Assembly: GCF_024298765.1 (NCBI RefSeq)
Contig: NZ_CP101210.1
Source: Escherichia coli
GTDB taxonomy: Bacteria > Pseudomonadota > Gammaproteobacteria > Enterobacterales > Enterobacteriaceae
Strand: one strand, 5' to 3'
Length of the DNA: 64,000 nucleotides
Shown here one piece after another: positions 7,951-32,532 of the stretch (within the stretch, counting starts at the first letter, position 1; the number at the start of each line of letters is the position of its first letter). Position numbers and translations under genes: made by a program. Under the pieces are notes generated by a model. That model was not told the origin of the DNA. It ran no database searches and worked only from the letters and a program-made list of their open reading frames with translations.

Positions 7951-8799
7951 ATGGCGACATACCTTATTGGCGACGTTCATGGTTGTTACGATGAACTGAT
8001 CGCATTGCTGCATAAAGTAGAATTTACCCCTGGGAAAGATACCCTCTGGCTGACGGGCGATCTGGTCGCGCGCGGCCCGGGTTCGCTGGATGTTCTGCGC
8101 TATGTGAAATCCTTAGGCGACAGCGTACGTCTGGTGCTGGGCAATCACGATCTGCATCTGCTGGCGGTATTTGCCGGGATCAGCCGCAATAAACCGAAAG
8201 ATCGCCTGACACCGCTGCTGGAAGCGCCGGATGCCGACGAGCTGCTTAACTGGCTGCGTCGCCAGCCTCTGCTGCAAATCGACGAAGAGAAAAAGCTGGT
8301 GATGGCCCACGCCGGGATCACGCCACAGTGGGATCTACAGACCGCCAAAGAGTGCGCGCGCGATGTAGAAGCGGTGCTGTCGAGCGACTCCTACCCCTTC
8401 TTCCTTGATGCCATGTACGGCGATATGCCAAATAACTGGTCACCGGAATTGCGGGGGCTGGGAAGACTGCGGTTTATCACCAACGCCTTTACCCGTATGC
8501 GTTTTTGCTTCCCGAACGGTCAACTGGATATGTACAGCAAAGAATCGCCGGAAGAGGCCCCTGCCCCACTGAAACCGTGGTTTGCGATTCCTGGCCCTGT
8601 CGCTGAAGAGTACAGCATCGCCTTTGGTCACTGGGCATCGCTGGAAGGCAAAGGTACGCCGGAAGGTATTTACGCGCTGGATACTGGCTGCTGCTGGGGT
8701 GGTACATTAACCTGCCTGCGCTGGGAAGATAAACAGTATTTTGTCCAGCCGTCGAACCGGCATAAAGATATGGGTGAGGGAGAGGCGGCTGCGTCTTAA
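7951..8799 (+). CDS. apaH: Diadenosine tetraphosphatase (symmetrical)
   Basis: 282-aa ORF, metallophosphatase motifs (GDVHG, GNHD). Confidence 0.95.
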
Positions 8800-9097
8800 A
8801 TCCCGTCGAGCATAAAATCTAATGCTCCTTTAATCAACGTTCGGTGCGCGCTGGCATCGCAAAATTTCGTTCCCAGCGCGTTAACTGGAACAGTTGCAGT
8901 CTCATGCGTCATGAGCCGTCTACCAGTAAAAGGATTGTGTTAAGCCGTTCTGGAGGGCGAATACGGATAAATCGTTCAATAGGTGTTAATGGAATAACAA
9001 TACGGCGATTAATCTCACCAATAATGTCGCTGGTAACATCGATAACAAAGGGAAACGCGGCGTTCCTGCCGCGACTGCGGTATACCGTAAATTGCAT
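8796..9097 (-). pseudogene. ccdB: ccdB-like gyrase-poison toxin gene, frameshifted: N-terminal 62 codons 9097-8912 then TGA; C-terminal part continues in another frame 8912-8796
   Basis: N-terminal ORF MQFTVYRSRGRNAAFPFVIDVTSDIIGEINRRIVIPL aligns with F-plasmid CcdB; conserved C-terminus [38 protein letters not shown] is read in a different frame immediately downstream. Confidence 0.7.
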
Positions 9098-9099
9098 CG

Positions 9100-9333
9100 C
9101 TAGAAGCTCCGGTACTCATCAGAGAAACATCCGGTTTCATCAGCCAATTGATTTAACGCAGCGATAGCTTCTGCGTTCTCTTCACGCCAACGTATTGCTG
9201 CATGTTTTTTAAGTTCAGCATTGAGCGCAACCGTAAGGGTGGCGCTCATATTTAAGCCTGCATCACGAGCGCGATTGACTAACTCACGGTCGACGGTGAC
9301 GGTCACACTTTGTGTGGTACGTTTTGCAGTCAT
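9100..9333 (-). CDS. ccdA: CcdA-like antitoxin
   Basis: 77-aa ORF with VTVTVD...W.EEN motif pattern similar to F-plasmid CcdA; stop is 2 nt before the ccdB-like ATG. Confidence 0.8.
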   Translation of the reverse strand: MTAKRTTQSVTVTVDRELVNRARDAGLNMSATLTVALNAELKKHAAIRWREENAEAIAALNQLADETGCFSDEYRSF

Positions 9334-9418
9334 GATATCGTGCTCCTGTACAATTTATACGTCTAGTAAACACGGATATCTGCACGTATCAGTGATGCCG
9401 GAATTCTAATATACAAAA

Positions 9419-11944
<2,526 letters not shown>

Positions 11945-32451: not shown

Positions 32452-32462
32452 GTTTTCTCCAT

Positions 32463-32532
32463 AAAAAATGCCGGTAACAAGACCGGCATTTTTTATGGAG
32501 AAAACATGCCGGTAACAAGACCGGCATTTTCG
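32463..32532 (-). terminator. Two tandem copies of a hairpin (GCCGGTCTTGTTACCGGC plus T-run) between ispH and rihC; likely terminators
   Basis: 38-bp periodic repeat; each copy is a GC-rich stem followed by T-run on the minus strand. Confidence 0.5.

Follow-up and report, generated by a model that had tools for sequence, protein, structure and literature searches.

The closest described relative of the element considered here is the ccdO157 islet of Escherichia coli O157:H7 (Wilbaux et al. 2007; Mine et al.), which shares its locus, gene order, and orientation with a ccdA/ccdB toxin-antitoxin module in the window, by which we mean the whole 64,000-nt stretch of E. coli contig NZ_CP101210.1 (assembly GCF_024298765.1) analyzed in this study. 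As summarized in reviews that cite Mine et al. 2009, the ccd islet of O157:H7 lies between folA and apaH, where K-12 has a spacer of 77 bp, with a repetitive extragenic palindrome (REP) at the site, and the locus is plastic. This literature further states that toxins are defective in about 30% of ccdO157 homologues, that chromosomal CcdB is under neutral evolution, and that F-plasmid CcdB evades the chromosomal antitoxin, while the F-type CcdA of pO157 can neutralize the chromosomal toxin; for the intact O157 system, it reports both gyrase poisoning and neutralization by the cognate antitoxin. Kim et al. (bioRxiv 10.1101/2021.09.24.461737) studied extraintestinal E. coli and predicted a CcdB of 40-95 aa versus 105 aa in 19 of 52 sequence types, from truncations that arose at least nine times, in phylogroups F, D, and B2. 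In their proposal, quinolone-resistant backgrounds (GyrA S83X) select against CcdB.

The islet in the window is very probably a chromosomal type II toxin-antitoxin module of the ccdO157 type, in which ccdB has been broken by a 13-nt deletion and the open reading frame (ORF) of ccdA is intact. None of the evidence collected here contradicts this anatomy. The module had been noticed in an earlier reading of the letters alone (the sequence-only reading), and every coordinate given there was reproduced from the sequence and the ORF list. That reading also put the distance between the stops of folA and apaH at about 620 bp and gave less than 100 bp for K-12; we found 619 nt in the window versus 77 nt in a K-12-like genome (L004). 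The short K-12-like spacer contains a REP-type palindrome, and the ccd islet stands in its place. The 619 nt hold three ORFs, all on the minus strand, which are listed here with the pseudogene and the deletion.

9100 to 9333, minus strand: ccdA, 77 aa, intact; allele WP_000125563.1, carrying T47I relative to the common O157 allele.
8796 to 9097, minus strand: ccdB pseudogene of the ccdO157 type, 302 nt versus 315 nt when intact.
8909 to 9097, minus strand: ORF of the ccdB N-fragment, 62 aa, with its TGA at 8911-8909; matches positions 1-56 of 101 in the Pfam CcdB model.
8796 to 8912, minus strand: ORF of the ccdB C-fragment, 38 aa, from ATG at 8912-8910 to TAA at 8798-8796; matches positions 65-101 of 101 in the same model.
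8915 to 8917, minus strand: junction of the 13-nt deletion; GCAAAGAATATGT, present in intact alleles, is absent here.

The 77-aa product matches the CcdA family (Pfam PF07362) at full length (E=7.9e-26; residues 8-77 against positions 2-71 of 71), and it also matches PDB 2ADL (E=1.7e-5). Its TAG stop (9100-9102) and the ATG of ccdB (9097) are 2 nt apart on the same strand, which is the bicistronic, antitoxin-first arrangement. Similarity of both toxin fragments to CcdB, in different frames, had been claimed and was found: the N-fragment matches PF01845 with E=4.4e-14, and the C-fragment (MTHETATVPV...MLDGI) does so with E=3.8e-8. Intact alleles elsewhere match this profile end to end in one ORF, whereas the match in the window is split over two frames, and the window therefore holds a ccdB pseudogene and no CcdB toxin. 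The sequence-only reading had the N-fragment aligning with F CcdB over 62 codons; the ORF does have 62 codons, but the similarity is significant over only about 40 residues.

Alignment to the intact alleles of RM9872 and of an O157 strain showed that exactly 13 nt are absent from the window, the size that had been estimated as roughly 13 nt. A GC microhomology of 2 nt makes three positions of the junction equivalent. The deletion takes out K62 to V65 and one base of L66, which is the same arithmetic as the earlier count of five missing codons with 2 nt left over. Where an intact ccdB encodes ...V D G K E Y V L M T H E..., the window encodes ...V D G S and then a stop. The 38-aa ORF begins at what is an internal codon, Met67, in intact ccdB. 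Its ATG overlaps the stop of the N-fragment as ATGA, which is purely an effect of the shifted frame on the native CTC ATG ACG.

RefSeq annotates ccdB as 'CcdB family protein, frameshifted' beside an intact CcdA in all 13 of the deletion carriers whose annotation we read. These include strain 104 (chicken, China), the nearest genome, which is collinear with the whole window at approximately 99.97% identity; the others come from humans, poultry, cat, dog, pig, wild bird, and sediment, and from several continents.

A separate feature of the ccdB 5' end is a terminator-like hairpin on the minus strand (9056-9073, codons 9-14), CGCGGC-AGGAAC-GCCGCG followed by TTTCCCTTTG, which a G-to-A change weakens in O157-type alleles. 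Terminator-like hairpins in ccdB number three against an expectation of 1.1±1.3, which is not significant.

We measured the distribution of the islet and of its deletion in a set of 5,426 complete E. coli genomes. By megablast with positions 8700-9500, the full islet is present in 2,021 of them (about 37%), most matches spanning 814 nt against the 801-nt query. The islet of the O157 strain AR-0429 differs from that of the window by eight mismatches in 608 aligned bases and the 13-nt gap. For the deletion itself we used a 40-nt probe centered on the junction and required every 28-mer seed to span it; 258 genomes carry the junction at 100% identity. A probe for the undeleted site found 1,758 genomes, and the sum of the two counts, 2,016, is near the number of islet carriers.

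Linked single-nucleotide polymorphisms (SNPs) bear on the history of the deletion. The window and 12 public carriers of the deletion all have those at 8938, 8954, and 9369, which occur in none of eight undeleted islets. With a thirteenth public carrier and two genomes of the C84* allele (described below) added, giving 14 deletion-allele sequences and 10 undeleted islets, the SNPs at 8938 and 8954 are still present in all of the former and none of the latter; at 9369, C84* is the only other allele with the same base. Since all carriers compared have the linked SNPs in common, their pattern suggests that the 13-nt deletion allele has a single origin. Islets with the deletion differ from one another at 0-5 of 608 positions, while in the flanks of their carriers the differences reach 20 of 1,096 left-hand and 22 of 832 right-hand positions, and the flanks fall into at least three backgrounds. 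We infer that the allele, once it had arisen, persisted for a long time, moved between lineages by homologous recombination, or both.

The deletion is one of several lesions found in this toxin gene. A small sample of genomes contained four further independent lesions of ccdB, with ccdA intact in each case, at the following loci of our set.

G95*: L018 and L020.
+1 frameshift: L019.
L37*: L021.
C84*: L024 and L026.

Probes centered on the respective SNPs gave 413 genomes with G95* and 118 with C84*. G95* leaves a 94-aa product, which RefSeq annotates as a 94-aa protein with no pseudogene label. Together, the deletion, G95*, and C84* account for at least 789 of the approximately 2,021 islets (39%); the counts of truncating alleles are lower bounds, and RefSeq sampling favors clinical clones. 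Among ccdO157 homologues, both partners are reportedly active in 69%, the antitoxin is active and the toxin inactive in 29%, and both are inactive in 2%.

The anatomy points to the following course of events. An intact operon encodes first CcdA, a ribbon-helix-helix antitoxin (Lon-labile in the F system), and then CcdB, a 104-aa gyrase poison. Deletion of 13 nt between the 2-nt GC repeats shifted the ccdB frame after codon 61, and the main ccdB product would now be the 62-aa N-terminal fragment. One core strand is incomplete in this fragment, and it is missing all of the C-terminal third, which aligns to residues 64-101 of F CcdB, including W99. A review reports that W99 is crucial for the toxicity of F CcdB. 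Because the predicted product is without this C-terminal third and the region of W99, the toxin is almost certainly dead, and with a dead toxin the module would no longer be an element of addiction or post-segregational killing. In the F system, isolated CcdA2 binds the operator, whose core consists of GTATAC palindromes, too weakly to repress it, and repression is achieved by alternating chains of CcdA2 and CcdB2. If the same holds here, the ccd operon has probably lost its autoregulation, since isolated CcdA2 would repress only with bridging CcdB2 dimers, and the islet may have no remaining function.

Upstream of ccdA there are two further features.

9334 to 9418, minus strand: spacer of 85 nt that separates the ccdA start from the stop of folA; putative promoter/operator of ccd.
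9369, minus strand: SNP, T on this strand in the window and A in O157-type alleles.

The spacer carries an AGGAG Shine-Dalgarno sequence 9 nt before the ccdA ATG, several 6-bp palindromes, and three sites within one mismatch of GTATAC, a motif whose identity is borrowed from the F-plasmid operator. Three such sites are more than expected from shuffled sequence (P approximately 0.013), and 0.5% of tiles across the window reach that number. In O157-type alleles, a promoter scan found the promoter-like arrangement CTGATA-16-TATACT, in which the -10 hexamer overlaps a perfect GTATAC. With the SNP at 9369, this -10-like hexamer becomes TTTACT and the palindrome, the only perfect GTATAC, becomes GTTTAC; the same scan found no sigma-70-like site in the ccd region of the window. 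The sequence-only reading had the antitoxin kept. Its 77-aa ORF is indeed intact, and the claim applies to that ORF; CcdA itself carries the derived T47I, and the -10-like hexamer upstream is mutated.

The window-type site at 9369 occurs in 398 genomes and the O157-type site in 1,466. We rejected the idea that the SNP is exclusive to the deletion, since 398 genomes carry the SNP and 258 the deletion; the window-type base also accompanies the independent C84* allele. If all carriers of the deletion and of C84* have the SNP, these two alleles together would explain as many as 376 of the 398, and about 22 remain. One might take the SNP as the mark of an ordered decay in which loss of the toxin was followed by loss of autorepression by (CcdA2:CcdB2)n, by silencing of the promoter/operator through selection or drift, and then by decay of ccdA, but we consider such a sequence of events rather unlikely. 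Alternatively, the SNP may be ancestral to a single clade in which the toxin died twice. In a module whose toxin is dead, the mutated -10-like hexamer and operator-like palindrome would fit continuing neutral decay. The position of this SNP in a promoter-like hexamer and operator-like palindrome is only a mildly new detail.

The two genes of the islet differ in how much they vary. Among 21 sequences, 25 sites vary over 316 nt of ccdB (16 nonsynonymous and 9 synonymous), versus 3 over 234 nt of ccdA (Fisher p=0.0003), and ccdA is intact in 24 of 24 public genomes examined. The T47I change (window position 9194, codon 47) lies in the toxin-binding C-terminal half of CcdA and is also found in strains 104, MDR_56, and APEC E956. 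The independent C84* clade carries CcdA T34M. Both changes may be first signs that constraint on the antitoxin loosened once the toxin was lost.

Several of these observations weigh against the picture of a dead toxin in a neutrally decaying operon. The marked conservation of ccdA could reflect continuing selection rather than just slower decay. The promoter-like site of the O157 allele is a single consensus match, and one such site is about what is expected by chance per kilobase. The ATGA overlap of stop and start could permit some synthesis of the 38-aa C-terminal peptide.

The explanation that best survives beside a decaying module is that selection keeps ccdA as an orphan antitoxin, either as protection from addiction by incoming ccdO157-type toxins, on plasmids or in recombined intact islets, or as a regulator. 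It would account for an antitoxin gene that is intact in every public genome examined in spite of five independent kinds of ccdB lesion, and that has approximately six-fold fewer variable sites than ccdB; plasmid relatives of the subtype, at 60-74% identity, do exist in Enterobacterales. Such relatives are very rare in E. coli when close ones are sought, however, and the toxin of the F plasmid evades the O157 chromosomal CcdA. Conservation of ccdA could be a legacy of the period in which the toxin was active, both toxin-null clades examined have nonsynonymous changes in CcdA (T47I in one, T34M with C84* in the other), and the SNP in the -10-like hexamer and operator-like palindrome argues against maintained expression. 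We regard a selected orphan antitoxin as distinctly unlikely.

One E. coli record filed as a plasmid, CP054241.1 (834 kb), carries a ccd islet beside apaH at 98% protein identity, and it is the only 'plasmid' match at 98%. It looks like a chromosomal segment or a chromid-like assembly and would then be no true plasmid copy of ccd.

Very improbable, in our judgment, is residual toxin-related activity of the broken gene, whether through reinitiation at the ATGA, giving complementing fragments or a lone C-terminal peptide, or through a fusion made by -1 frameshifting. The geometry of the overlap (TGA at 8911-8909, ATG at 8912-8910) is compatible with translational coupling, and the C-fragment spans the part of the fold that bears the toxicity determinant of F CcdB. 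But the ATGA is incidental, being native ...CTC ATG ACG... in another frame, and we found neither a Shine-Dalgarno sequence before the ATG nor a slippery heptamer nor a downstream structure in a suitable place. Any product would be without four to five residues of a core strand, and substitutions accumulate in both fragments among the carriers. Strain SC418 has a new stop past the TGA in the frame of the N-fragment, which weighs little since it is not in the frame of the C-fragment. A search of a review of gyrase inhibitors gave nothing usable on the activity of CcdB-derived peptides or on C-terminal determinants. That the frameshift is an artefact of sequencing or assembly and the isolate's ccdB is intact is hardly credible: single small indels are common among assembly errors, but this deletion comprises 13 nt outside a homopolymer, has an identical junction in 258 independent complete genomes that span a wide range of hosts and countries, and is linked to two further SNPs specific to the deletion allele.

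The broken ccdB and intact ccdA lie between two core genes.

7951 to 8799, plus strand: apaH, one flank of the islet; 282 aa, with its TAA at 8797-8799.
9419 to 9898, minus strand: folA, the other flank.

The bounds of folA are those of the RefSeq annotation of the near-identical strain 104; in the ORF list the frame runs upstream to 10033. The TAA of apaH on the plus strand and the stop of ccdB on the minus strand (8796-8798) overlap in the TTAA at 8796-8799, so that there is no terminator between these convergent genes. No known RNA family turned up when 8500-9700 was scanned with Rfam at E<=1. The product of apaH has 282 aa in genomes that carry the islet and 280 aa in K-12-like genomes (...KDLGEAAAS), which are without 6 nt at the 3' end of the gene (window 8780-8799), a difference that adjoins the islet boundary.

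Elsewhere in the window, the spacer between ispH and rihC (32453-32530) has 38 extra nt (TTATGGAGAAAACATGCCGGTAACAAGACCGGCATTTT) relative to strain 104. The insert combines an inverted copy of the rihC leader with a duplicate of the ispH terminator hairpin; the result is a perfect palindrome, its arms approximately 25 nt long, just upstream of rihC (ATG at 32451-32449, minus strand). A junction probe found it in only 4 of the 5,426 complete genomes. Tandem Repeats Finder reported nothing at this 38-nt difference near 32.49 kb, the duplication being inverted, not tandem. Between nhaA and dnaJ, at about 41.7-41.9 kb, annotation transferred from strain 104 (L023 9706-9858) places the type I toxin mokC of the hokC locus. 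The annotation of that strain lists no insertion sequence in the stretch collinear with the window, from rapA to robA.

For annotation, the consequence is that ccdB should be treated as a pseudogene and ccdA as an orphan antitoxin of the chromosomal ccdO157 type. The locus is a clean example of the published toxin-first decay of chromosomal toxin-antitoxin modules and matters little beyond that. Our counts extend the published picture, which drew on about 400 isolates, to a set of 5,426 complete genomes. If CcdB truncation is indeed tied to quinolone-resistance mutations, as others have hypothesized, the state of ccdB could serve as a lineage marker.

The sequence-only reading had stated that a chromosomal ccd at this locus and its decay were already described, and the literature bears this out: the folA-apaH ccdO157 islet, its decay, and recurrent truncations of CcdB in clinical isolates are all on record. 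Both the element in the window and its state of decay are thus known, and it remains to place the module among its relatives. The best match with a solved structure is the CcdB of Vibrio fischeri (PDB 2KMT, 3JSC, and related entries), to which the N-fragment aligns with E=3.2e-9 and the full-length toxin, with the deletion repaired, end to end with E=1.2e-16; that protein is an intact toxin from a different genus and genomic context. The F-plasmid ccdAB (letAB) shares with the window its Pfam families and the bicistronic layout of antitoxin followed by toxin. Its operator has GTATAC palindromes and shows conditional cooperativity, GTATAC-like motifs are enriched upstream of ccdA in the window, and its mechanism is presumably the same as that of intact chromosomal alleles. 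F CcdB is nevertheless a distant relative of the repaired toxin (E=2.8e-11; about 35% identity according to a review). Scores against the NCBIfam F-type equivalogs are 37.4 bits for CcdA (NF010264, cutoff 100) and 61.2 bits for the repaired CcdB (NF010262, cutoff 147), and values this far below the cutoffs make the proteins members of the CcdA and CcdB families but not equivalogs of those of the F plasmid. The module in the window also differs from that of F in being chromosomal and in having a broken toxin, and chromosomal CcdA does not neutralize F CcdB. In the size classes of Kim et al., the 62-aa product falls into '40-84 aa' and that of G95* into '95 aa'. Compared with ccdO157 itself, the CcdA of the window differs by one residue, and the further differences are the 13-nt deletion in ccdB and the mutated -10-like hexamer and GTATAC palindrome upstream of ccdA. 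The published class with an active antitoxin and an inactive toxin, about 30% of ccdO157 variants, fits the allele of the window.

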